A stretch of 64,000 bases of DNA from a bacterium (GTDB lineage Bacteria > Bacteroidota > Ignavibacteria > UBA10030). The notes under the pieces were generated by a model, which was not told the DNA's origin, searched no databases, and saw only the letters and a list, made by a program, of their open reading frames with translations. This document shows positions 29,271 to 63,977 of this stretch, piece by piece. The translations under genes and the position numbers were made by a program. Every line of letters begins with the position of its first letter. The stretch's first letter is position 1. The DNA is taken from NCBI GenBank assembly GCA_043803945.1, contig JAZDJN010000016.1, positions 224,812-288,811 of the forward strand, given 5' to 3'.

Positions 29271-30686
29271 TCAATGCCTAATCATCGTTGCTTCTTCTAT
29301 CCATTGTTTCCCATCCCAGTATCGAACCTTATTTTGCAAAAACCTCAAATAGGTGTCATCCAATATAGTGGAGAACACGCCCTCCTCATTTCGTTGTTTA
29401 AAATATACTGCTGCTACATCTGTTTTTCTAATATTCAGAAGGGAAAGGTCATTTCTCGAAAAGGAATAATTGAATATACATGATCTGTTCTCATTTGATA
29501 ATGAATAAGTTAATGTAGAATCATCATATGGCTTCCCATCGAATCTAGGTTTTGTTTTCATTTTTTCGTCTATAGGAGATCTAAGCACTTTAATGTAATA
29601 TATTTCAGGAGATGGCATTTGTGTATTGAATCCTGGAGTAACCATGGAAGAACTCTTTCCAATTAATCTTGAGGGATCTATTATCGCAATTGATGCTTCA
29701 CCCAGATCGTGCTCTCCTCGGTATGAACCCGATAAGGCGATCCTTTTCTTCGCCGGACTTACTACCGATACTGTTTCAGCAAAAAGAAAGTGTCCGAAAT
29801 GCCAGTATGCGCCAATTACTTCTAATTTCTCATTGAGTTTGAGCAGAACAAAAGGAGAATAAAAGTTACCCAATCCAACGTACAATTCTGGTATTTTATT
29901 CTCATCAAAATCCCCTGTAAGGAGAAATTTGCAGATGAATACGTTCGGATAATCTTCTCGTTTATATGATACATTCTTACCTAAATCACGACTAAATAGC
30001 GAATCACCATCCGGTGAATATATTCTTATCAGGCTTGTTCTTGTCCAATCATCAGGATCAACCGGAAAGAATGTCACCAGTTCATTTCTCCCATCGTTGT
30101 TTAGGTCGATCAAAGTAGTAAACATTTTCGCTGAAACTTCATAAGTCGGCCGATCACACCAGTAGGGTATCGTCCACAATTGCTGCCGTGCACTATTATA
30201 CACAGCAATCGAATGTAGGGAATCTATATAATCATAACGAACTGGATTTCTATCACTAATTCGATCATTCTCATAATTATTCCTAGGGAAGAAAAGAAAG
30301 AGCATAAAGGCGATCGATAAAAGACCTACTCCACCAACCCTTATCGGCACTGAATATTTCTTCATATAGTACCTGAACTTCTCAATTCCTCTTAATGGCT
30401 CGTAATAGACCTGTGTATATTCTTCAGGTTTACGTGAGAGATATTGTACTGCTCTTCTTATCAATGCACGCTCGGGCTTAGCACCGAGTTTCGGATTTTC
30501 ATCTAACTCTTTATGAGTTGTCATATAGAATTCCTTCATCTCTAGAAAGAGCTGTTGGCAGCCCGGACACAAATCGAGATGTGCTTCGATCTCCCTTGCC
30601 CGCTTAAGCACTTGCTCATCACCCAAAAGAAAAAGCTCTAATGTATGTTCATCGATGTGTCTCATTTCACCTGATATTTCTTTCAT
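29271..30686 (-). CDS. Anti-sigma factor with N-terminal zf-HC2 zinc-finger domain, one TM helix and large extracytoplasmic domain
   Basis: HTLELFLLGDE...HLDLCPGCQQ matches the zf-HC2 anti-sigma motif. TM helix VGGVGLLSIAFMLFLFF, then ~330-aa unknown domain. Start immediately follows the upstream sigma-like gene stop. Confidence 0.6.
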   Translation of the reverse strand: MKEISGEMRHIDEHTLELFLLGDEQVLKRAREIEAHLDLCPGCQQLFLEMKEFYMTTHKELDENPKLGAKPERALIRRAVQYLSRKPEEYTQVYYEPLRGIEKFRYYMKKYSVPIRVGGVGLLSIAFMLFLFFPRNNYENDRISDRNPVRYDYIDSLHSIAVYNSARQQLWTIPYWCDRPTYEVSAKMFTTLIDLNNDGRNELVTFFPVDPDDWTRTSLIRIYSPDGDSLFSRDLGKNVSYKREDYPNVFICKFLLTGDFDENKIPELYVGLGNFYSPFVLLKLNEKLEVIGAYWHFGHFLFAETVSVVSPAKKRIALSGSYRGEHDLGEASIAIIDPSRLIGKSSSMVTPGFNTQMPSPEIYYIKVLRSPIDEKMKTKPRFDGKPYDDSTLTYSLSNENRSCIFNYSFSRNDLSLLNIRKTDVAAVYFKQRNEEGVFSTILDDTYLRFLQNKVRYWDGKQWIEEATMIRH

Positions 30687-31718
30687 CTAATCGCCACTGC
30701 TGAAAATGTTTCTTAATCGCTCTTCCACGCATCGACCAAGGTATTCCAAAATATTCTTATGCTTCCTCGAATATTCTTCTTTCGTTAATCCCTCAATGTG
30801 CCGCTGTAACTCCCTTTGATAACTGAAGCCCTCTCCATTCTGAAAGATAAGCACTGCATGCAAACGCCTTTCGATAACTGTAAAGTATGATTCGTACACC
30901 TCGGTACATACTTTACGCTTGCCAACGTATTTAATGGCCATCTTCTCTCGTACATGTTTACATGCTTCCCGAATCAGAAGGCGTATATCTTCCTCCATAA
31001 GGGTTTCTTCAACTTCAGGCCGCTGAATGTCGGAAATCGCAGGAGAGCCAAAGACCGATCTGAATACCTTTGCAACCATGATGATCGGCAATGATCGGGA
31101 GTATGTATTTTGTTCGCGTATTATTCGTGAGAGTGTTGAAAGGAGTGAAGGGATGATATTTGTTTCATCCCCAGTTGCCCGCATATCCACCTCGAGCAAT
31201 TCAATCGGGTATTCAGGGAGATTCAATAATGGATCACAACAACTCGGTGCGATGTAACTCTCTCCAAATCGCTCGAACTCCGTAAAATTATTCAACGTCT
31301 GAAGTGCAATTTTTATATTCCTTAGAATCCTTCCTAATGTTGGATCGATCTCGTTGTAGAGTCTGAAAAGATTGATATTCACCTTCGAGAAGACCAACCG
31401 ACGGAGCTGGGCGATGAGTTCCTCGTTGGACATAGAAGAAACGGGGAAACCCTCAAAATAGATTTTAAGCTGAACCAAATTTCCATACTGATCCCGCTGA
31501 AAGAGATCAGCGATGCAGTCGTACCCCAGGTCGGTTAAGTCAATGCCTAAGAGATTTTTCGTGAGTCGACCTGAAGCGCGTTTGCTCTTGAGAAATGAGA
31601 TTGCCAATCCGTGGCAGAGTTTAACGAGTTCGTTTAACCGCTGCTCGTTGTAGGAAGAGGAAAGAATAGCCTCAAGGCAGGTGCGGATGTCGGGAAGGAT
31701 ATTTTTCGTGGATGACAT
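30687..31718 (-). CDS. Divergent, enlarged sigma-70-family factor (putative ECF-like sigma with long insertion)
   Basis: Region-2-like LVKLCHGLAISFL...GIDLTDLGYDCIADLFQRDQYG and region-4-like HTH ERRLHAVLIFQNGEGFSYQRELQRHIEGLTKEEYSRKHKNILEYLGRCVEERLR. 343 aa against ~190 for typical ECF sigmas. Co-transcribed with the anti-sigma gene. Confidence 0.45.
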   Translation of the reverse strand: MSSTKNILPDIRTCLEAILSSSYNEQRLNELVKLCHGLAISFLKSKRASGRLTKNLLGIDLTDLGYDCIADLFQRDQYGNLVQLKIYFEGFPVSSMSNEELIAQLRRLVFSKVNINLFRLYNEIDPTLGRILRNIKIALQTLNNFTEFERFGESYIAPSCCDPLLNLPEYPIELLEVDMRATGDETNIIPSLLSTLSRIIREQNTYSRSLPIIMVAKVFRSVFGSPAISDIQRPEVEETLMEEDIRLLIREACKHVREKMAIKYVGKRKVCTEVYESYFTVIERRLHAVLIFQNGEGFSYQRELQRHIEGLTKEEYSRKHKNILEYLGRCVEERLRNIFSSGD

Positions 31719-31768
31719 ACGATGTGTTACTTCATAATGAGACCAAGCACTATCTTCACTCTAAATTG

Positions 31769-32326
31769 CTACTTCATCTTGAGCAATTGTTGAACATTCT
31801 CCAGAACGTCGCTCCGTTCTAGATCAATAAATGCCCTAGCGATAGCGAGGAGGTACTTTGAGTCAAGGTGTTTGCTGTAAAGCCTGGCAAGTAATTGCAC
31901 ATCGTCTCGATCTCTACCCCTGTCAGCAGCAAGTTTATAAATAATCAAATCCTCGACAGTACAACATGGTATTGATCTGCCAGCAACTTTCTTTTGAATT
32001 GCCCGTCGCACAGCACTTCTATCAAATCCACCCAGGCCCGCTGAAATATCAATCTCAACACCTGTCTCCGGATCGGTTACGGGAAGGACAAAATACTTTT
32101 CAAAAAAATCTTCTGGATGATCTTTTCTCGGTTTATAGAACTTAAGAATGCGTGCTGCAGTTGCTTTTAAAACATCAAATTCTATGAGGAGCGTGATATC
32201 AATATCCTTTGTTACCCTCTGAATTCCATATAAGATTACTGCATATCCTCCAATGAGAATATATCGTAAATTGTTTTGCATCAGATTGTCATCGAGTCGT
32301 AATATTGTCTTCTCGAATTGAGTCAT
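31769..32326 (-). CDS. Pol-beta-superfamily nucleotidyltransferase-fold protein (TA-toxin-like minimal NTase)
   Basis: LRYILIGGYAVILYGIQRVTKDIDITLL matches the G[GS]x9-13DxD NTase core; 185 aa. ATGA overlap with the upstream small gene. Confidence 0.5.
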   Translation of the reverse strand: MTQFEKTILRLDDNLMQNNLRYILIGGYAVILYGIQRVTKDIDITLLIEFDVLKATAARILKFYKPRKDHPEDFFEKYFVLPVTDPETGVEIDISAGLGGFDRSAVRRAIQKKVAGRSIPCCTVEDLIIYKLAADRGRDRDDVQLLARLYSKHLDSKYLLAIARAFIDLERSDVLENVQQLLKMK

Positions 32327-50429: not shown

Positions 50430-51926
50430 TTATCGTGCGCCAACCATCATCACCGATGCATTTGCAAGATCCACAATCGGTGCATAGAACAATCCGAACA
50501 GCACAGTCGGAATCATTAACACAAATAGGAAAACAATCTGAGGTACCGAAAATTGAATCGGCGTTGCATGCTTTTCTGGATCACGTAAAAATATATTACG
50601 TATGACGCGGACGTAAAAGTAGAGTGACACAACACTATTTAATGCACCGACGATGGCCAACCAGATCCATCGTGCATCGAGCAATGCGGCGAAGAGAAAG
50701 AGTTTTCCGATGAATCCCGCAGTCGGCGGTAAACCGGCAAGCGATATGAAAAAGATCACCATTGCCACACTGATCATCGGCGATCGGTATCCCATCCCCT
50801 TGTAAGAATCAATATCTTCTTTCCCTGTCTTCGATTCGATAAGCATAACGACATAGAATGCACCCAGGTTCATGAACAGATATACGATGAAGTAGATGAG
50901 CACTGCGGCGATTCCCTTATCGCTCAGCACGACGACTCCCATTAACATATAACCGGCATGAGCAATGCTCGAGTACGCAAGAAGCCTTTTCAGATTATCC
51001 TGCCAGACTGCGACGAGATTTCCAAGGGTCATCGTCAGCACTGAGAGAATCGCAACGATCTTGTTCCATTCCAAGCCCTGTAATGTTACCCAGAGAGCGG
51101 AGGGTAATCCGGGAACGGTGAAATCAAAAAACGACATCTTGAAAAATCGAATCAACATCGCGAACCCTGCAGCTTTCGATGCCACTGAGAGGAACGCGGT
51201 AATGGTAATAGGTGCACCCTCATAGACATCCGGAGTCCAGAAATGAAATGGGACTGCGGAGATCTTATATCCAAAGCCCACGAGAATAAAAATGATCGCG
51301 ATGAGTAAAGCAATCGGATTTACCGGCATCATCGTTAAAGCCCTATTGATGCCATAAACGTCCGTCGCACCGGTCAGACCAAAGAGAATAGACATGCCAT
51401 ACAGCATCACTCCCGACGAGAGCGCTCCATAGATGATATATTTCAATGCTGCTTCGCTTGAGTCGGAAGCTTCGCGGGTATATCCTGCAACCACGTAAGA
51501 ACTCAAACTCGTTAACTCGATCGCCAACACCATCATCAGGAGGCTCGTGGCACCGGCCATAAGAAACATGCCGAGCGTCATCGAAACAATCAGCGTTGAG
51601 TATTCCATTAACCGATTAATGGTCGAACGAACCTCCGACGAGTAGAGGGAAAAAAGCAGGATGAGAAAAGCTGACATACCGACAATCAGTTTGAAAAAAG
51701 AGGCAAACGGATCGAGAGCCAGCATCCCAGAGAATAGGGCCTGTGACGTGCCCATTTGTTTGACCACAAAATACAGGGAAACGAGTATTCCCACACCGGA
51801 GAGTACCGGAACAATTTGTGGTCTCTTGGTAGCAATTAACCCGGCGAGCAGCGTTACGCAGACCGTTGCCGTCAGAATCGTCTCCGGGAGGAATAACGAA
51901 AGACTATTGAGAATTTGTTCAGTCAT
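50430..51926 (-). CDS. nuoN: NADH-quinone oxidoreductase subunit N
   Basis: 14-TM antiporter-like subunit, 498 aa, last gene of the operon. Confidence 0.9.
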   Translation of the reverse strand: MTEQILNSLSLFLPETILTATVCVTLLAGLIATKRPQIVPVLSGVGILVSLYFVVKQMGTSQALFSGMLALDPFASFFKLIVGMSAFLILLFSLYSSEVRSTINRLMEYSTLIVSMTLGMFLMAGATSLLMMVLAIELTSLSSYVVAGYTREASDSSEAALKYIIYGALSSGVMLYGMSILFGLTGATDVYGINRALTMMPVNPIALLIAIIFILVGFGYKISAVPFHFWTPDVYEGAPITITAFLSVASKAAGFAMLIRFFKMSFFDFTVPGLPSALWVTLQGLEWNKIVAILSVLTMTLGNLVAVWQDNLKRLLAYSSIAHAGYMLMGVVVLSDKGIAAVLIYFIVYLFMNLGAFYVVMLIESKTGKEDIDSYKGMGYRSPMISVAMVIFFISLAGLPPTAGFIGKLFLFAALLDARWIWLAIVGALNSVVSLYFYVRVIRNIFLRDPEKHATPIQFSVPQIVFLFVLMIPTVLFGLFYAPIVDLANASVMMVGAR

Positions 51927-56884: not shown

Positions 56885-57493
56885 TTAATTCCCGGTTTGT
56901 CCTGATGGTGCCGCTGGTGGAGTTTGCGGAGGCGGCGCAGGGGGCGGCGTTGCCGCTTTCGCTGCGGCGGCTGCAGCTTTCTTTGCTGCCGCTGCGGCAT
57001 CTGCCTTTTTCAACCGTTCACGTGCTCCCTCAATCTCCTGCGGTGTCATTGTACCAAAGTGATAGATCAAATTGTGACGATCGTATTCGGAAAATTCGTA
57101 GACATCTGTCATAACAATACATTCTGTTGGACAAGGCGGGACACACAATCCGCAATAGCAGCACTTGCCGATGTCGATATCAAACCTGGAGACATACAAA
57201 CGCTTCTTTGTGTTCTTTGAGGTCAGGCCAAGATCGACATCCGGAGTGGACTTAATTGTTTCGATGGAAATGCAGTCGACCGGACAAGCCATGGAGCATT
57301 GATCGCACCCGATACAATCGTCAATATTGACATAGAGGCGATTTCGTGCCCGTTCAGGCATTGTCAATTTTTGATCGGGATAATGAATTGTCACCGACCG
57401 GATGAAGAGCTGGCGGATGGTAATCCGCATGCCGATCACAATACTGTAGAGAGCAGACCAGATATTTCCAAAATAGATTTTTACAGCTTCCAT
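56885..57493 (-). CDS. nuoI: NADH-quinone oxidoreductase subunit I (2x[4Fe-4S]) with Ala/Lys/Pro-rich C-terminal tail
   Basis: Two CxxCxxCxxxCP ferredoxin motifs. 40-aa low-complexity tail KKADAAAAAKKAAAAAAKAATPPPAPPPQTPPAAPSGQTGN. Confidence 0.9.
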   Translation of the reverse strand: MEAVKIYFGNIWSALYSIVIGMRITIRQLFIRSVTIHYPDQKLTMPERARNRLYVNIDDCIGCDQCSMACPVDCISIETIKSTPDVDLGLTSKNTKKRLYVSRFDIDIGKCCYCGLCVPPCPTECIVMTDVYEFSEYDRHNLIYHFGTMTPQEIEGARERLKKADAAAAAKKAAAAAAKAATPPPAPPPQTPPAAPSGQTGN

Positions 57494-58604: not shown

Positions 58605-59795
58605 TTATCGATCGACCTCACCGAGCACGATGTCAACACTGCCGGCAATCAGGACAATGTCGGCGATCATTACACCGCGGGAAATCTCCGGTAAGGCTTG
58701 TAAATTAGAAAATGCCGGTGCGCGCCCTTTCACACGGAATGGGCTGCTCGTACCATCGCTCATGATATAGAATCCGAGTTCACCCCGGGGAGTCTCTGTC
58801 CGTGCATAGATCTCTAATCCGGGCTCAGGACGAATTCTCTTTGGAATCGCTGCCTGAACATTTCCCTCAGGAATCTTATCAATTGCCTGTTCAACAATGT
58901 TTAGACTTTGCTCCATCTCGCGCATACGAACAATATGACGATCCCAGCAATCGCCTACTGCTCCAACCTCGCCCTTACCGACCTGGGGTTCCCACGCGAA
59001 ACGGTCATAGATAGAATAGGGATCATCGCGTCGAAGATCCCAATTCACTCCCGATCCTCTCAACATCGGTCCGCTGCAGCCAAAGTTGATTGCAACATCG
59101 GCGGGAAGCACTCCCACGTTTGCTGTTCGCTTGATAAAGATCTCGTTGTAGGTCAGGAGATCATTCACCATTTTAATACGGGGGCGGAAATACTTGCAAA
59201 ACGCCTTGGTCTTCTCGACAAATTGCGGTGGAATATCGTGCGAAAGCCCGCCAATCCACATGTAGTTATACAACAGACGTGCGCCGCATGTCATCTCAAA
59301 GAGATTGAGTATCATCTCCCGATCGATGAAGCAATAGAGAAACGGCGTGAATGCACCTGCGTCGATTCCATAAGTACCAACGGCAATCAGATGGCTTGCG
59401 ATTCTCTGCAGCTCAGCCATTATGACGCGGATATATTCTACCCGTTCGGGCACCTGGATTTTCAGCATCCTCTCCATCGCCACAACGAAGCTGAAATCGT
59501 TCGTCATCGAAGAGCAGTAGTCCATCCGGTCTGCATAGGGAATGACTTGTTGATAATTGGTCATCTGCTCGCAATGCTTCTCAAAACAACGATGGAGATA
59601 GCCAATATGGGGAATGACATCGACTACGATTTCACCGTCGAGAATGACTTCAAGCCGAAGCACTCCGTGAGTCGATGGGTGTTGCGGGCCCATATTAACG
59701 ATCATTTCCTCGGTGCGTAATGTTTTCCCGCTCGAGGTTTTTAATTCGCCATGCTTGAATACATAGTTTGTCGGAAGAGATTTAGTTTCAACCAT
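58605..59795 (-). CDS. nuoD: NADH-quinone oxidoreductase subunit D
   Basis: 49-kDa subunit. Typical NuoD N-terminus ([15 protein letters not shown]) and C-terminus ([12 protein letters not shown]...[10 protein letters not shown]). Confidence 0.92.
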
Positions 59796-59811
59796 CGATC
59801 AATACTCTGGT

Positions 59812-60288
59812 CTAGTATGGAACTTTCATGCCGTTGTAAAATTCAGGAGTCTTATAGTCTTTCCTGAGTGGATATCCTTCCCAATCGTATGGAAGGAGTA
59901 TTCGACGCAAATCTGGATGTTCGTCGAAGACAATACCGAAAAGATCGAATGCCTCACGCTCGTGCCAGTTAGCCGTTGCCCACACCTCGCTCACCGTTTG
60001 CACATGAGGATCATCCTTTGTGCATTCAGCTTTCAACACAATCTTATGTTTGAATGGAATTGAGGAGAGATGATAGACAACCCCGAGCTTTCCGTTATTG
60101 TAATCGATCCCGCTCAGGGACATCAGGAAATCGAATTGCATGGAGGCAGTGTCGCGGAGGAAGAATCCCACTTTTTTCAACTTCGCGGGGGCAATTTTAA
60201 TCCAGGGTTGGAGAACATCCAGCCTGGATTCAAGGATTGCCTCTCCGAATTGCTCTTTTAATACAGTTAGAATTTCTTGAGCGGTCAT
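59812..60288 (-). CDS. nuoC: NADH-quinone oxidoreductase subunit C
   Basis: 30-kDa subunit, 158 aa (LSGIDY...YHLSS...ATANWHEREAFDLFGIVFDEHPDLRRIL). Confidence 0.9.
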   Translation of the reverse strand: MTAQEILTVLKEQFGEAILESRLDVLQPWIKIAPAKLKKVGFFLRDTASMQFDFLMSLSGIDYNNGKLGVVYHLSSIPFKHKIVLKAECTKDDPHVQTVSEVWATANWHEREAFDLFGIVFDEHPDLRRILLPYDWEGYPLRKDYKTPEFYNGMKVPY

Positions 60289-60294
60289 TCTATG

Positions 60295-60723
60295 TTATTC
60301 TTTTATTTGAAATTGTATCATTAATGGTATGCTTGCAACATCTATCCATTTATTCGGTGTTTCTTCATATGAAACATTAAATAGATGACGACCTCCCCTT
60401 TTTATAGGTAAGCCACCGATTTTCGTTATTGTTCGAAATCGGGAATGTGCAGTTAAATCGAGCTCATAGATTTGCTCTTTAATAACTTCTCCAGAAGGAT
60501 CAAGTTGCCTCATTTTACACCTTTTTTTCTCGGGTTTGTCAATTGGGAATCTTTCCCAGAGGCTAACTACATCAAAATTAAATGGTACTATGCCTACTTG
60601 CCCTTCAATTGGGGGTGTTCCTATAACTGTCAATTGTTCAACTACTTGAATTAAGCTAATATTTTTGGTCCCCTCATCGATTACACTGTTCGTACAGAGA
60701 ACAGTCCAAATGTGATTAATCAT
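60295..60723 (-). CDS. Hypothetical protein (142 aa), third gene of an AT-rich cassette inserted between nuoB and nuoC
   Basis: Clean ATG-initiated ORF, 6 nt upstream of the nuoC start and 11 nt after the previous gene. About 35% GC against about 48% for flanking nuo genes. No recognisable family. Confidence 0.5.
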   Translation of the reverse strand: MINHIWTVLCTNSVIDEGTKNISLIQVVEQLTVIGTPPIEGQVGIVPFNFDVVSLWERFPIDKPEKKRCKMRQLDPSGEVIKEQIYELDLTAHSRFRTITKIGGLPIKRGGRHLFNVSYEETPNKWIDVASIPLMIQFQIKE

Positions 60724-60734
60724 ATCTCACCTTG

Positions 60735-61340
60735 TCAATTCAATACATTAGCTGAACAGAGAACAATTTGATTATCCTCAGAAGCATTCAACTGTGCACA
60801 TAAGAAAGGTTGATGTTTCTCAGAAGTACCTCGTGAAAATACTTCAAATATCTTAGTGAATGGTAAAGAGTAATTTGGCAATGAGATAATTATCGATTCA
60901 CCAACCTCAAAATTCTTTGAATAAAATTCAGTGCCTTGGAATATAACTTGATGAAAGCTTATCACGTTATTATCAATTTGTCTATTGAGAAGAAAGTGTG
61001 CTGATAATTTCTTTGACCACCAACAATTAGGAGTATTCAATATGGTCTCAGCCATAATTTTTACATATTCTTGGTTATTGTCATTCATCAGCCAAAGATA
61101 AATCGTAAGGGGGGTGTCGAAAGGATGTTCATATCTAAGATCAATACTCTGTTGAGATAAGTTCAAAAACCTTGAAAAGATATACCTTTGAATTCTATTA
61201 TCCTTTAATTGTAAAGAAAGATATTGAACACATTCCTCGGTTTGGGCACCTTTGATAAAAGTTAAAAAATCACTCGCCACTCTCAATCTTGCAGAAAATT
61301 CATGACTTTCAATTATTATTATTGATTCTTTTAGATTCAT
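60735..61340 (-). CDS. Hypothetical protein (201 aa), second gene of the nuo-embedded cassette
   Basis: Its start overlaps the upstream gene's stop (TAATG at 61338-61342). AT-rich. No recognisable family. Confidence 0.5.
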   Translation of the reverse strand: MNLKESIIIIESHEFSARLRVASDFLTFIKGAQTEECVQYLSLQLKDNRIQRYIFSRFLNLSQQSIDLRYEHPFDTPLTIYLWLMNDNNQEYVKIMAETILNTPNCWWSKKLSAHFLLNRQIDNNVISFHQVIFQGTEFYSKNFEVGESIIISLPNYSLPFTKIFEVFSRGTSEKHQPFLCAQLNASEDNQIVLCSANVLN

Positions 61341-61861
61341 TATAAACCTCTCCTTTCAGACCAAAATTCGCTTGGCTTTCCTAGAATAGGAGGAAGAATA
61401 TCTATGGGATGAAAATATTCACCATGGTCACCCCATTTGCTTAAGACAATGAAAGAACGAGTTGCATCTTCAAGATTAAATTTTACATGATATATCTTTG
61501 CAATGTGAGTAATTTCATGAGTGGATTGATTGCGGTAAATTACTAAATCACCTTCCTTAAGCTGAGTTTCATCGGTTATCCTGTAATAACCGTCATCTGT
61601 AAATATCAATTCTAGATATTTAGGATCAATCCTTGTCCTACGAGAGGAAAATATCATTCCCACACAATTATATGTAGATGTAATTGATCGTGGTTTAGCA
61701 TCAGGATAAGCGACTGCAAAAGCTTTTTTTGCTATTATTTGCTTTTGAGGGATCAACTCCATCCCTCTCGAATTAGGAATATCATTCTTCTTGGCTGTAG
61801 CTAATGGAATATAGGAAGGATCTCTAGGTGTTTCAGCTCCAATTATTATCTCAGCAGTCAT
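61340..61861 (-). CDS. Cytoplasmic NlpC/P60-like (papain-fold) cysteine hydrolase, first gene of the nuo-embedded cassette
   Basis: Cys motif STYNCVGMIF (cf. DCSGLV), then EGDLVIYRNQ...THEITHIAKIYH (cf. PGDLVFF...HVGIYIG), then a third His in EYFHPID. No signal peptide. Starts 8 nt after the nuoB stop. Confidence 0.5.
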   Translation of the reverse strand: MTAEIIIGAETPRDPSYIPLATAKKNDIPNSRGMELIPQKQIIAKKAFAVAYPDAKPRSITSTYNCVGMIFSSRRTRIDPKYLELIFTDDGYYRITDETQLKEGDLVIYRNQSTHEITHIAKIYHVKFNLEDATRSFIVLSKWGDHGEYFHPIDILPPILGKPSEFWSERRGL

Positions 61862-61869
61862 AAGTACTC

Positions 61870-62364
61870 TTAAGCTGATTTCTTCTTGGCTAAACTTTCT
61901 TTTCTAATTTTTTCCTGAAGCTTTATAATGCCTTCCAGAAGTGCTTCGGGACGCGGGGGGCAACCCGGCACATACACATCAACCGGAATAACCCGGTCGA
62001 CGCCTTTCAATACATGGTATCCATGTTCCCAATATGGCCCGCCGCAATTCGCGCAGCTTCCCATCGAGAGCACATAGCGGGGTTCTGCCATCTGGTCGTA
62101 TAAGCGCTTGATGCGTGAAGCCATTTTTAGTGTTACCGTGCCGGAGACAAACATCACATCGATTTGCCGCGGCGTTGCCCGTGGAATGATACCGAACCTC
62201 ATAATATCGAAGTGTGATGCAGAGGCCGCCATCATTTCGATGGCACAACAAGCAAGTCCAAATTGCATCTGATAAAGCGATGAAAGCCTCGCCCAATTTA
62301 ATAAATTGTCAAGGGAAGTGATGAAGACATTTCCATTCTCAAACCGCTGATCAAGTAGTCCCAT
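61870..62364 (-). CDS. nuoB: NADH-quinone oxidoreductase subunit B
   Basis: N2 cluster ligands CCAIE...[10 protein letters not shown]...PGCPP; 164 aa. Confidence 0.92.
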
Positions 62365-62412
62365 AAGCAGGTTATCCCATTTCTATTTCAACTATCATGT
62401 CGTAGGAAGTTC

Positions 62413-62841
62413 TTACAGTTTTTGCTCTAGCGCAGCAGGCATAGAAAAGGAGGGGCGATTAATTGTCGGCACCTGGGGACGAGGTTTATCCCAATCCAGA
62501 TCACCCTTCACCCACACATAGGCAAATCCCACAAAGAGGATGACGAGAAAAATTGCCATTTCAATGAATCCAAAGATTCCCAGGCCGCGATAGACAAGGG
62601 CCCAGGGAAGCAGGAAGACTACTTCGACATCGAATATTAAAAAGATCAGAGCAATGACATAGAAGCGGACATTGAGCTTGATCCAGGCACTGCCGACAGG
62701 TTCTTCACCGCATTCATAGGTTGCATTCTTGGCCGGGTAGCGTCTGTTTGGCCGGAGGATCCAAGCGGCCATTAATCCAACAGCAACAAAGACAGTGCCG
62801 ATCAGGATGAAGATGAGAATTTTTCCAAATTCGGTTAACAT
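62413..62841 (-). CDS. nuoA: NADH-quinone oxidoreductase subunit A
   Basis: 3-TM subunit. Start taken at MLTEFGKILIF (62841) rather than the track's extended 62940; ...YECGEEP...FLIFDVEVVFLLPWA. Confidence 0.85.
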   Translation of the reverse strand: MLTEFGKILIFILIGTVFVAVGLMAAWILRPNRRYPAKNATYECGEEPVGSAWIKLNVRFYVIALIFLIFDVEVVFLLPWALVYRGLGIFGFIEMAIFLVILFVGFAYVWVKGDLDWDKPRPQVPTINRPSFSMPAALEQKL

Positions 62842-63029
62842 CGATGTCTCCTCGGAGAAAATTTCCTCATACAACTTCACATTCCACAAAAAATGGTTGT
62901 TCAATATAAAGAGAGTTCGACCATAAGTCAAGAAATACACTTGATTCTATTGAGTCTTTTGCCGTATAAAGTTTGGGATTCTCTATAATGAGAATTGAGA
63001 GTAGGAGATACCTTTTTCGCTCACGCACA

Positions 63030-63977
63030 TTAAGAACTTGTTTCCGAGTCTCCTTTTGCTTTGCGCTGCAATTGTCCTTCAATCCGTTTCGCACTGGGAG
63101 TAATCGATAATCCACCAAGACCCGTACACCTTAGCGTGTAGGGGAGGCTTCTGCCAACAGCATCGAACGCTTGGAGAACCTCATCAAGCGGAATGAGATG
63201 TTGGTAATCGGCCAATGCCATATTTGCACATGCCAGAGCATTTACAGCCGCCATTACATTTTTCCCGAGGCACGGCGCCTCAACCCGATTTGCAATCGGA
63301 TCACAGGTCATACCAAACGAATTTTGTAATGCGAATGAAGCAGCGGATAAAGATTGCTGGAGAGTTCCCCCAGCAAGATGCACTAAGCCCGCCGCAGCCA
63401 TTCCAGCAGCAGAGCCGCACTCTGCCTGACATCCGGCACTTTCAGCGGCAAAAGTTGAGCGCTCCGCAATAAACACGCCAATTACTCCGGCAGCAAGCAT
63501 CGCCTTGACAATTTCATCGTCGTCGAGATGAAGTGCATCACCCGTTCCGAGCAGCGCACCGGGCAGAGTACCACAAGAGCCTGCTGTAGGGGCGGCGACA
63601 ATGATCCCCATTGAACTCTTCACTTCCAGCATTGCTGTGACGTAGAGGATAATTCTGTTTAATACGGAGCCCTCGACAAGCCGGTTCTCCTCCATCTTAG
63701 TTTTAAAACGGAGCGACTGAACAGGAAGAATTCTGTCGGCATAGTCAGTCCCTTTCAGCCCCGAATCGAGTGAGCGCCTGAGGAGTTGGACAATTTCCCT
63801 CATCTTATCGATGACGTATTCTCCTGTAAAATTCCCCCGCTCCGCCTCGTAAGCAACCGCAAGTTCCCAGAGTGCAAGATTCTTCCCTTCATTGAACTTC
63901 AACATTTCCTCGCTAGTGGAAAATGGAACTGTCATTCCTTTCCGTGCAAGCACGGGTAACACCGGTTGTATGACCAC
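63030..63977 (-). CDS. sdaAA: L-serine dehydratase, iron-sulfur-dependent, alpha subunit (N-terminus at or beyond the window edge)
   Basis: VAAPTAGSCGTLPGAL, SAASFALQNSFGMTCDPIANRVEAPCLGKN motifs. The ORF reaches 63977 and may extend past 64000. Confidence 0.75.
   Translation of the reverse strand: MVIQPVLPVLARKGMTVPFSTSEEMLKFNEGKNLALWELAVAYEAERGNFTGEYVIDKMREIVQLLRRSLDSGLKGTDYADRILPVQSLRFKTKMEENRLVEGSVLNRIILYVTAMLEVKSSMGIIVAAPTAGSCGTLPGALLGTGDALHLDDDEIVKAMLAAGVIGVFIAERSTFAAESAGCQAECGSAAGMAAAGLVHLAGGTLQQSLSAASFALQNSFGMTCDPIANRVEAPCLGKNVMAAVNALACANMALADYQHLIPLDEVLQAFDAVGRSLPYTLRCTGLGGLSITPSAKRIEGQLQRKAKGDSETSS

Follow-up and report, generated by a model that had tools for sequence, protein, structure and literature searches.

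A 64,000-nt stretch of DNA from a bacterium of the Ignavibacteria (GTDB lineage Bacteroidota; Ignavibacteria; UBA10030; assembly GCA_043803945.1, contig JAZDJN010000016.1, positions 224,812 to 288,811 of the forward strand; hereafter, the window) carries a cassette of three genes, A, B and C, inside its complex I (nuo) operon, at the junction between nuoB and nuoC (window positions 60295–61861, minus strand). The cassette is very probably an independent module, acquired horizontally and without relation to complex I, and the best explanation of our data is that it plays no part in complex I function. We favor, with moderate confidence, the interpretation that it is a mobile module composed of a toxin (A), an antitoxin (B) and a helper (C) that rides on the expression of the nuo genes. 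Three lines of evidence point to a predicted logic resembling that of the toxin–antitoxin–chaperone (TAC) systems: the C-terminal tail of B co-varies with the third gene, C is common to A-B-C loci and to HigB-HigA (HigBA) operons, and the insertion site is one that toxin–antitoxin modules also occupy in related genomes.

The cassette consists of three intact, ATG-initiated open reading frames (ORFs) on the minus strand, encoding proteins of 173 (gene A, 61340–61861), 201 (gene B, 60735–61340) and 142 amino acids (gene C, 60295–60723). It is sandwiched between an intact nuoB upstream (164 aa, 61870–62364, minus strand; Pfam Oxidored_q6, E = 6.7e-30) and an intact nuoC downstream (158 aa, 59812–60288, minus strand; Pfam Complex1_30kDa, E = 9.4e-45). 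In gene order, 8 nt separate the nuoB stop codon from A (GAGTACTT, 61862–61869, minus strand), A and B share a 1-nt TAATG overlap, B and C are 11 nt apart, and 6 nt lie between C and the ATG of nuoC (CATAGA, 60289–60294). These ORFs and spacings had been described in a first-pass annotation of the window and were borne out. By reading the sequence, we located a Shine-Dalgarno-like AGGAGAGG ahead of gene B, within the 3′ end of gene A (61347–61354, minus strand), and a second one, AAGGTGAG, ahead of gene C (60726–60733, minus strand). The TAATG overlap and the AGGAGAGG motif before B are consistent with translational coupling. The three ORFs are genuine genes rather than chance ones because each has homologues elsewhere (E-values of 3e-21 and below for A and 3e-31 and below for C, with B detected through its family profile).

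A search for terminator-like sites found none within positions 59500–63200, compared to 3.0 in shuffled sequence, and a promoter scan showed no enrichment (10 sites versus 8.9 expected). Because the cassette contains no terminator-like site and almost no spacer, read-through from the nuo promoter is probable, and co-transcription of the cassette with the nuo genes from that promoter is plausible. The surrounding operon had been described as 11 otherwise contiguous nuo genes. Ten of these stand, as a Pfam scan of the window confirmed NuoA, B, C, D, H, I, J, K, L and M around the cassette; the eleventh depends on a 498-aa ORF (50430–51926), outside that scan, which is taken to be nuoN as the last gene of the operon.

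We compared the insertion site with the same junction in related species. A NuoD search returned best relatives with 70–84% identity, in metagenome-assembled genomes labelled Ignavibacteriota, Ignavibacteriales or Bacteroidota. The survey of their nuo operons examined 80 of 314 matches and yielded 74 related species whose loci hold both nuoB and nuoC. None of the 74 carries A, B or C at the nuoB-nuoC junction, and their median gap there is about 10 nt. The cassette is also conspicuous in composition, with a GC content of 0.32–0.36 compared to 0.44–0.52 in its flanks. Its GC content at third codon positions (GC3) is 0.24–0.27, whereas 46 host ORFs average 0.479 ± 0.057 (z = −3.7 to −4.3), so that the AT-richness noted in the first pass was upheld by a codon-composition check. 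We conclude that the cassette was inserted horizontally, as had been proposed, and is not an ancestral subunit, because it is absent from all 74 relatives, its GC3 is deviant and the same module occurs at unrelated loci.

The boundaries of the insertion are clean. The window's NuoB aligns with the relatives' NuoB over residues 1–163 of 164 (80–92% identity) and its NuoC aligns over residues 1–158; therefore, the insertion spared both genes. Two relatives (L014 and L023) have TAAGAGT or TAAGAGC at this junction, with the nuoC start, ATGAC.GCTCAAGA, immediately after it; the window has TAAGAGT, then ACTT, then gene A starting ATGACTGCT. The start of gene A (ATGACTGCT, 61853–61861) and the start of nuoC (ATGACCGCT, 60280–60288) both encode Met-Thr-Ala and form a direct repeat, matching at 8 of 9 nt, that brackets the cassette. 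This repeat may be a short target duplication or a captured nuoC start (a rough estimate of its chance probability is P of about 0.005); homologues of A have similar N-termini, however, which leaves the target-duplication reading ambiguous. An exact 12-nt direct repeat (AGCCAAGAAGAA, minus strand) occurs at the 3′ end of nuoB (61880–61891) and in gene A (61785–61796), 95 nt apart, and is probably not meaningful, as chance alone would give about 0.2 such pairs in this stretch. Around the cassette, we found no convincing terminal direct or inverted repeats as footprints of a mobile element.

These junctions also bear on whether the cassette was joined to the nuo operon by metagenome mis-assembly. 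The exact A, B and C proteins are on record from one contig only, as a chimera would predict, and looking up the exact sequence of A among contigs returned no record. Both junctions are nonetheless seamless, with full-length nuoB and nuoC and spacers of 8 and 6 nt, the contig is 299 kb long, and relatives have analogous insertions within the same operon. An assembly artifact is thus extremely improbable.

The nuoB-nuoC gap is enlarged in 5 of the 74 relatives, where it holds small inserted genes on the nuo strand, each insert having a lower GC content than its locus. Two of these inserts encode HicA and HicB (L049:3703-4330 and L045:4977-5450) and a third encodes a PHD-like antitoxin with HicA (L076:1325-1899). 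A fourth, partly N-masked, holds a HicA-like ORF for which Pfam gave no confirmation (L032:5206-5498), and the fifth holds an ORF for a retropepsin-like aspartyl protease (L069:5139-5526). The first-pass annotation had stated that no described system was known at this position. Our literature search found no publication of one, in agreement with that statement, but the presence of HicA-type toxin–antitoxin genes at the same junction in relatives shows that the position itself is not unique to the cassette.

Gaps of more than 200 nt were counted at the other nuo junctions as well (nuoA-nuoB 0, nuoB-nuoC 5, nuoC-nuoD 0, nuoD-nuoH 2, nuoH-nuoI 2, nuoI-nuoJ 1, nuoJ-nuoK 3 and nuoK-nuoL 2). The inserts include a DUF4258 and DUF2283 pair (L032:7176-7759) and a ClpP-like SDH protease (L028:6426-7595) between nuoD and nuoH, a DUF2442 protein between nuoH and nuoI (L076:4556-5065), and, between nuoK and nuoL, an S-adenosylmethionine methyltransferase (L067:9837-11031) and two large ORFs of 363 and 534 aa (L041:5303-8262). 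Two of the relatives (L032 and L076) carry two separate insertions each within one nuo operon. Therefore, the nuo operon of this lineage, and foremost its nuoB-nuoC junction, is a recurrent home of small selfish modules. The cassette resembles the HicAB and PHD-like–HicA inserts (L049, L045 and L076, with L032 as a probable case) in its insertion site, strand, low GC content and small self-contained form. It differs from these inserts, which have two small genes of known families, in having three larger genes without sequence relation to HicA or HicB.

We examined whether the three genes travel together in other genomes. A word-indexed search found few close homologues of A. They are encoded in a three-gene unit with products of 174–181, 160–214 and 144–152 aa, all homologous to the window's A, B and C. 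This unit occupies another locus, bordered by ilvD on one side and on the other by a UvrD helicase gene, which in some contigs is accompanied by a CoA-transferase gene. A metagenome scan with an alignment of A detected 136 relatives, from which 80 loci were kept for examination. After dereplication at 85% identity of A, and with a requirement for at least 1150 nt downstream of A, 36 loci remained. According to hidden Markov models for the three proteins, 27 of these contain A-B-C, eight contain A-B, and one contains A and C around an unassigned position (A-?-C). Across the family, the order A, B, C is kept on a single strand and overlaps of 1–4 nt are common. Homologues of C that were retrieved independently of A are also found in triads of about 170, 200 and 150 aa.

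Beyond close relatives, the module has no conserved fourth gene or neighborhood, and its flanks are mostly housekeeping genes. In nearly every host, the GC content of the module is below that of its flanks (for example, 0.34 versus 0.57 in L098 and 0.46 versus 0.67 in L154). An exhaustive profile search at E ≤ 1e-3 yielded an A family of 2748 clusters (50% identity), of which 1234 reach E ≤ 1e-10. Names are attached to few of the family's representatives, in each case 'hypothetical protein', and one of these comes from Chloroflexota. Two A-family clusters (P0022 and P0023) each lie on an 87,136-bp contig, and one genome may thus carry two copies of the module.

The comparative data leave little room for the proposal, raised in the first pass, that A, B and C serve complex I, either as accessory or assembly factors specific to the lineage or by enzymatic modification of Nuo subunits. 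Their location inside the nuo operon with operon-tight spacing would fit such a role, as would a second locus (L096:7166-9591) in which A-B-C starts about 460 nt upstream of nuoA of a nuoA-B-C-D operon, in divergent orientation. The host of that locus is a different organism with a 60% identical NuoB (L164 is a contig of the same organism), and it is the sole other nuo association seen. As a rough estimate, about 0.1–0.3 such adjacencies are expected among the approximately 36 dereplicated loci, so that this single further case is not significant and is probably a coincidence. Nearly all the other copies lie far from nuo genes, within unrelated flanks; none of the 74 related nuo operons carries the cassette; its composition is foreign; and unrelated small modules occupy the nuo junctions of the relatives. 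Because of these comparative data, the complex I readings are essentially excluded, and we consider them highly unlikely. As regards complex I biology, the outcome is negative, and the cassette does not add a subunit.

The toxin–antitoxin–helper interpretation is suggested in large part by the architecture of protein B. A 34-sequence family alignment divides B into a conserved, helical N-terminal domain of about 125 aa (residues 1–125, approximately; 60966–61340, minus strand), which we propose to be the neutralizer of A, and a variable C-terminal tail (residues 126–201, approximately, plus the stop codon; 60735–60965, minus strand), which tail-length comparison over loci marks as the putative C-dependent element. 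Within the N-terminal domain, E11 and D75 are invariant and R57, Y81 and W108 nearly so, and the domain has a weak, repeat-summed profile similarity to designed armadillo-repeat proteins. The tails vary in both length and composition. When C is present, the tail has 31–106 aa (median 79) in all 42 scored loci. In the two-gene A-B loci it has 1–18 aa (6 of 6 loci).

The co-variation extends to a sub-variant in which an unrelated DUF3467 protein of 129–159 aa replaces C (L117:6011-7579, L135:322-1927, L151:3-1439 and L148:2051-3494). Two of the three scored loci of this kind (L117 and L151) have B tails of 89–92 aa. In the third (L148), the tail reads 12 aa and is apparently broken by an intervening ORF; L135 was outside the scored set. 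At a separate locus (L095:8396-9202), no independent gene for C lies downstream of B. The tail of B is 112 residues long there and ends in a sequence (KEVAKIPLSITVTMH) similar to the conserved C-terminal strand of C, which could reflect either fusion of B with C or decay of C.

Protein C connects the module to a known toxin–antitoxin family. The AlphaFold2 model of C is an 11-strand all-beta sandwich without helices (predicted local distance difference test score, pLDDT, of 88.2). Foldseek aligned it to the sandwiches of the Wzt carbohydrate-binding domain, PDE6-delta, RhoGDI and UNC119, a generic likeness with template modeling scores of 0.45–0.57. The Pfam family DUF6941 (PF22091) is matched by 5 of 10 members of the C family (best E = 4.2e-10), the C homologue of one locus (L007) carries it as a pre-annotation, and the window's own C has no match; through its family, C is therefore classified as a remote DUF6941 relative. 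The first-pass annotation had recognized no family for either B or C. That statement holds for B, which has no Pfam or NCBIfam family or domain, and is corrected for C.

Homologues of C are the third gene in two HigBA operons. In the first (L173:54-1316), the genes of a Gp49/HigB-type toxin (PF05973) and an XRE helix-turn-helix (HTH_3) antitoxin precede that of a C homologue, which overlaps by 4 nt. The antitoxin of this operon has 147 aa, with about 55 residues past the HTH domain, and its C homologue starts MINHIWTVLC, like the window's C. A PDB search with the Gp49-like toxin gave no match, and its identity rests on the precomputed Pfam PF05973 annotation. The second operon (L175:3038-4420) was found by a viral-contig search with a narrow alignment of C, and is the sole viral locus found. 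On this 32-kb viral contig, HigB, HigA and then a C homologue follow one another, the last with a 4-nt overlap. Here, HigB matches E. coli HigB (5ifg_A) over its full length (E = 9e-7), and 5ifg_B matches residues 9–113 of the 219-aa HigA, leaving about 105 extra C-terminal residues.

According to bit scores and a neighbor-joining tree, the C proteins of both HigBA operons nest inside the diversity of the triad C proteins, and the window's C lies nearer to these two than to those of the ilvD-adjacent loci L001, L004 and L006. The nesting argues that C is a portable third component, and the gene order toxin, antitoxin and C in these two operons maps onto A-B-C. The earlier suggestion of a hitch-hiking toxin/immunity-like module is favored by the relatives' toxin–antitoxin inserts, by the HigBA-C operons and by the co-variation of the B tail.

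Protein A supplies the putative toxin. Cys66, His119 and His151 are invariant in seven homologues with 34–45% identity to the window's A, in the classical order and within conserved motifs. From the alignment, Cys66 (codon 61664–61666, minus strand), which is the only cysteine of the window's A, is the proposed nucleophile, His119 (61505–61507, minus strand) the proposed catalytic histidine, and His151 (61409–61411, minus strand) the proposed third residue of the triad. The homologues share the motifs YNCVG, GD(L/V)V.Y...H, LSKWG..GE..H and G.PSEFWSER. In a PDB profile search, the Cys and His motifs of A aligned to the NlpC/P60 protein 2evr, with His119 pairing with the histidine of its GDLVFF...HVG motif. 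All seven A members matched DUF7689 (PF24738; best E = 1.6e-5), and the window's A scored 21.6 bits (E = 3.8e-4), compared to a gathering cut-off of 22.6 bits. Sub-threshold matches were found to CHAP (PF05257; 6 of 7 members, best E = 0.0024) and NLPC_P60 (PF00877; 4 of 7, best E = 0.0089).

No signal peptide or transmembrane segment was detected in A, B or C, with a top Kyte-Doolittle 19-residue mean of 1.08. The first-pass assignment of A to the NlpC/P60 and CHAP papain fold, and its prediction that A lacks a signal peptide, are supported by the invariant triad, the family profile matches, the 2evr alignment and this hydrophobicity scan. Judged by its three-dimensional fold, which is that of NlpC/P60, and by its catalytic triad, A is a divergent cytoplasmic branch of the NlpC/P60 superfamily, and we propose that it has thiol-dependent hydrolase activity.

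Compared to the NlpC/P60 and CHAP peptidoglycan hydrolases (MepS/Spr, the cyanobacterial 2evr protein, LytE and CwlO), A has the same fold, the non-permuted Cys...His...His order and the GD(L/V)V..(Y/F)...H motif. It differs from them in being cytoplasmic, in scoring below the Pfam gathering thresholds, in being always paired with B, and in its family-specific motifs LSKWG..GE..H and G.PSEFWSER. These properties also make it very unlikely that the cassette is an orphan effector–immunity cassette from a secreted polymorphic toxin system, in which A would be a Tae-like NlpC/P60 amidase with B and C as immunity proteins. Immunity proteins against amidases that act in the periplasm would be exported, and all three proteins lack a signal peptide. 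In addition, the best 150 A-family representatives are mostly single-domain proteins of 130–190 aa without a trafficking domain, and secretion-system genes were not seen among the scanned neighbors of the module.

Combining these observations, we propose the following mechanism. The module would have landed in the nuoB-nuoC junction, where transcription from the nuo promoter would run through it and translation of its genes would be coupled. Protein A would act as a growth-arresting cytoplasmic thiol hydrolase; the chemistry of its superfamily suggests a gamma-glutamyl or isopeptide bond as the substrate, for example in peptidoglycan precursors. The conserved helical domain of B would bind and neutralize A, as suggested by the gene order and by the two-gene A-B forms. 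The tail would make B dependent on C, and C would bind the tail and stabilize B, as suggested by the co-variation and by the HigA-C operons. More speculatively, and by analogy with HigC and other TAC chaperones, C may double as the trigger point, for example if a phage protein frees the toxin.

Several observations weigh against this mechanism. The toxicity of A and its neutralization by B and C are inferred, the chaperone analogy for C is drawn from architecture alone, and the link between C and HigBA consists of two loci. To our knowledge, NlpC/P60 enzymes do not belong to the established toxins of toxin–antitoxin systems. The model of A is of intermediate quality (pLDDT of 67.6), with the Cys66 region poorly modeled. 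In B, no DNA-binding domain (HTH, ribbon-helix-helix (RHH), AbrB or Phd type) was recognized, unlike in most type II antitoxins. A Gibbs sampler found a weak shared motif in the B tails (log-likelihood ratio of 272 versus a null of 255 ± 4.4), which was sought and not found in the tail of the L173 antitoxin. Likeness of C to SecB was seen neither in the top 50 Foldseek matches nor in the PDB profile matches. The PADLOC v2 models matched none of A, B and C at E ≤ 10, and PHROG matched none either. Lastly, of the 102 neighbor genes scanned with Pfam and PADLOC, most are housekeeping genes and about 6 match defense families other than UvrD/GajB.

Part of the same evidence would suit a mobile but non-toxic accessory enzyme complex, in which A is a cytoplasmic peptidase or amidase, with B as the subunit that regulates or scaffolds it and C as the one that binds the substrate. 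Such a complex would recycle, for example, peptidoglycan-derived or gamma-glutamyl peptides, and would spread by usefulness rather than by addiction. The conserved triad of A, the fold of C (a ligand-binding type of beta-sandwich, like those of the Wzt carbohydrate-binding domains and PDE6-delta), the lack of a DNA-binding domain in B, the mostly metabolic neighbors and the lack of a PADLOC match are all compatible with it. Against it, C homologues are the third gene in two HigB-HigA operons, and the third gene can be swapped for an unrelated DUF3467 protein. The strict co-variation of the B tail with the third gene fits the TAC pattern better, and the consistently low GC content, sporadic location and insertion site in common with toxin–antitoxin modules also argue against it. 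We regard an accessory enzyme complex as unlikely, while giving it some weight.

Less probable still, in our assessment, is a system dedicated to anti-phage abortive infection, where C would be chiefly a sensor of phage proteins and B a latch freed by C on infection. TAC chaperones have been reported as phage sensors too (bioRxiv 10.1101/2024.02.24.581848), one HigBA-C operon lies on a viral contig (L175), and the few defense genes among the module's neighbors belong to restriction-modification, Septu, DRT and PD-T7-4 systems. The module loci are, however, not enriched in defense islands, no known defense model matches, and the A family is absent from viral contigs. Abortive infection overlaps the toxin–antitoxin–helper interpretation and does not exclude it.

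The functionally closest kind of system is the TAC system, as represented by HigB1-HigA1 with a SecB-like chaperone in M. tuberculosis and by HigBAC and CmdTAC in E. coli (PMC5105189, PMC6377645, bioRxiv 10.1101/2024.02.24.581848). TAC antitoxins have variable C-terminal 'chaperone addiction' extensions without significant mutual similarity, and two-component homologues lack these extensions (PMC5105189). HigC reportedly recognizes a tail protein of a phage, which competes with the tail of the antitoxin (bioRxiv 10.1101/2024.02.24.581848). Like TAC systems, the A-B-C genes are tightly coupled in the order effector, neutralizer and helper (in the window, A and B overlap by 1 nt and B and C lie 11 nt apart), B ends in a variable C-terminal extension that accompanies a third gene and is absent from the two-gene forms, and the third component is portable, as C goes with A-B and with HigB-HigA. 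Unlike TAC systems, C is an all-beta, DUF6941-like sandwich and not a SecB homologue, the putative toxin is an NlpC/P60 cysteine hydrolase and not an RNase or an ADP-ribosyltransferase, the putative antitoxin has a new helical domain without HTH or RHH, and A-B-C is known from sequence alone. Because C is not SecB-like and B has no classical antitoxin DNA-binding domain, we call A-B-C TAC-like, and not TAC.

B is a new protein family, and we found no published description of the A-B-C module. DUF7689 and DUF6941, which A and C match or border on, are Pfam families of no assigned function. A literature search returned no paper on either family by name and nothing relevant on NlpC/P60 in defense systems, and an NCBIfam scan of A, B and C gave nothing meaningful. 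We tentatively suggest, with less confidence than for the cassette itself, that A-B-C represents a new and widespread class of tripartite toxin–antitoxin–helper systems, given an A family of more than 1,200 clusters. In this class, a DUF6941-like, non-SecB beta-sandwich would serve as chaperone or sensor, would read variable antitoxin tails and would be portable between NlpC/P60 toxins and HigBA. It would constitute a second, independent 'chaperone addiction' and a new toxin class, and the nuo operon of Ignavibacteria-type bacteria would be a recurrent landing pad for such modules.

We know of only SecB-like chaperones doing the helper's job in toxin–antitoxin–chaperone systems. If our interpretation is correct, a second and SecB-unrelated helper fold would indicate that the addiction of antitoxin tails to a helper evolved more than once, and a cytoplasmic NlpC/P60 cysteine hydrolase would add a new effector chemistry to toxin–antitoxin systems. 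It would also give a functional context to DUF7689, to DUF6941 and to the previously unrecognized family of B. The nuo inserts provide a natural example of mobile genes that make use of a long core operon's promoter and leave that operon intact, and they bear on the tolerance of operons to insertions and on the persistence of toxin–antitoxin modules.

Two further features of the window lie outside the cassette. A second low-GC stretch (29271–32326, GC content of 0.37–0.41) holds three minus-strand ORFs and may be another acquired island. By eye, its 471-aa product has an anti-sigma zinc-finger-like N-terminus, its 343-aa product received no call, and its 185-aa product resembles a nucleotidyltransferase-type toxin or antitoxin component. 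At the 3′ end of nuoI (56885–57000), a low-complexity tail of about 40 residues rich in Ala, Lys and Pro (AAAAAKKAAAAAAKAATPPPAPPPQTPPAAPSGQTGN) extends past the two 4Fe-4S motifs.

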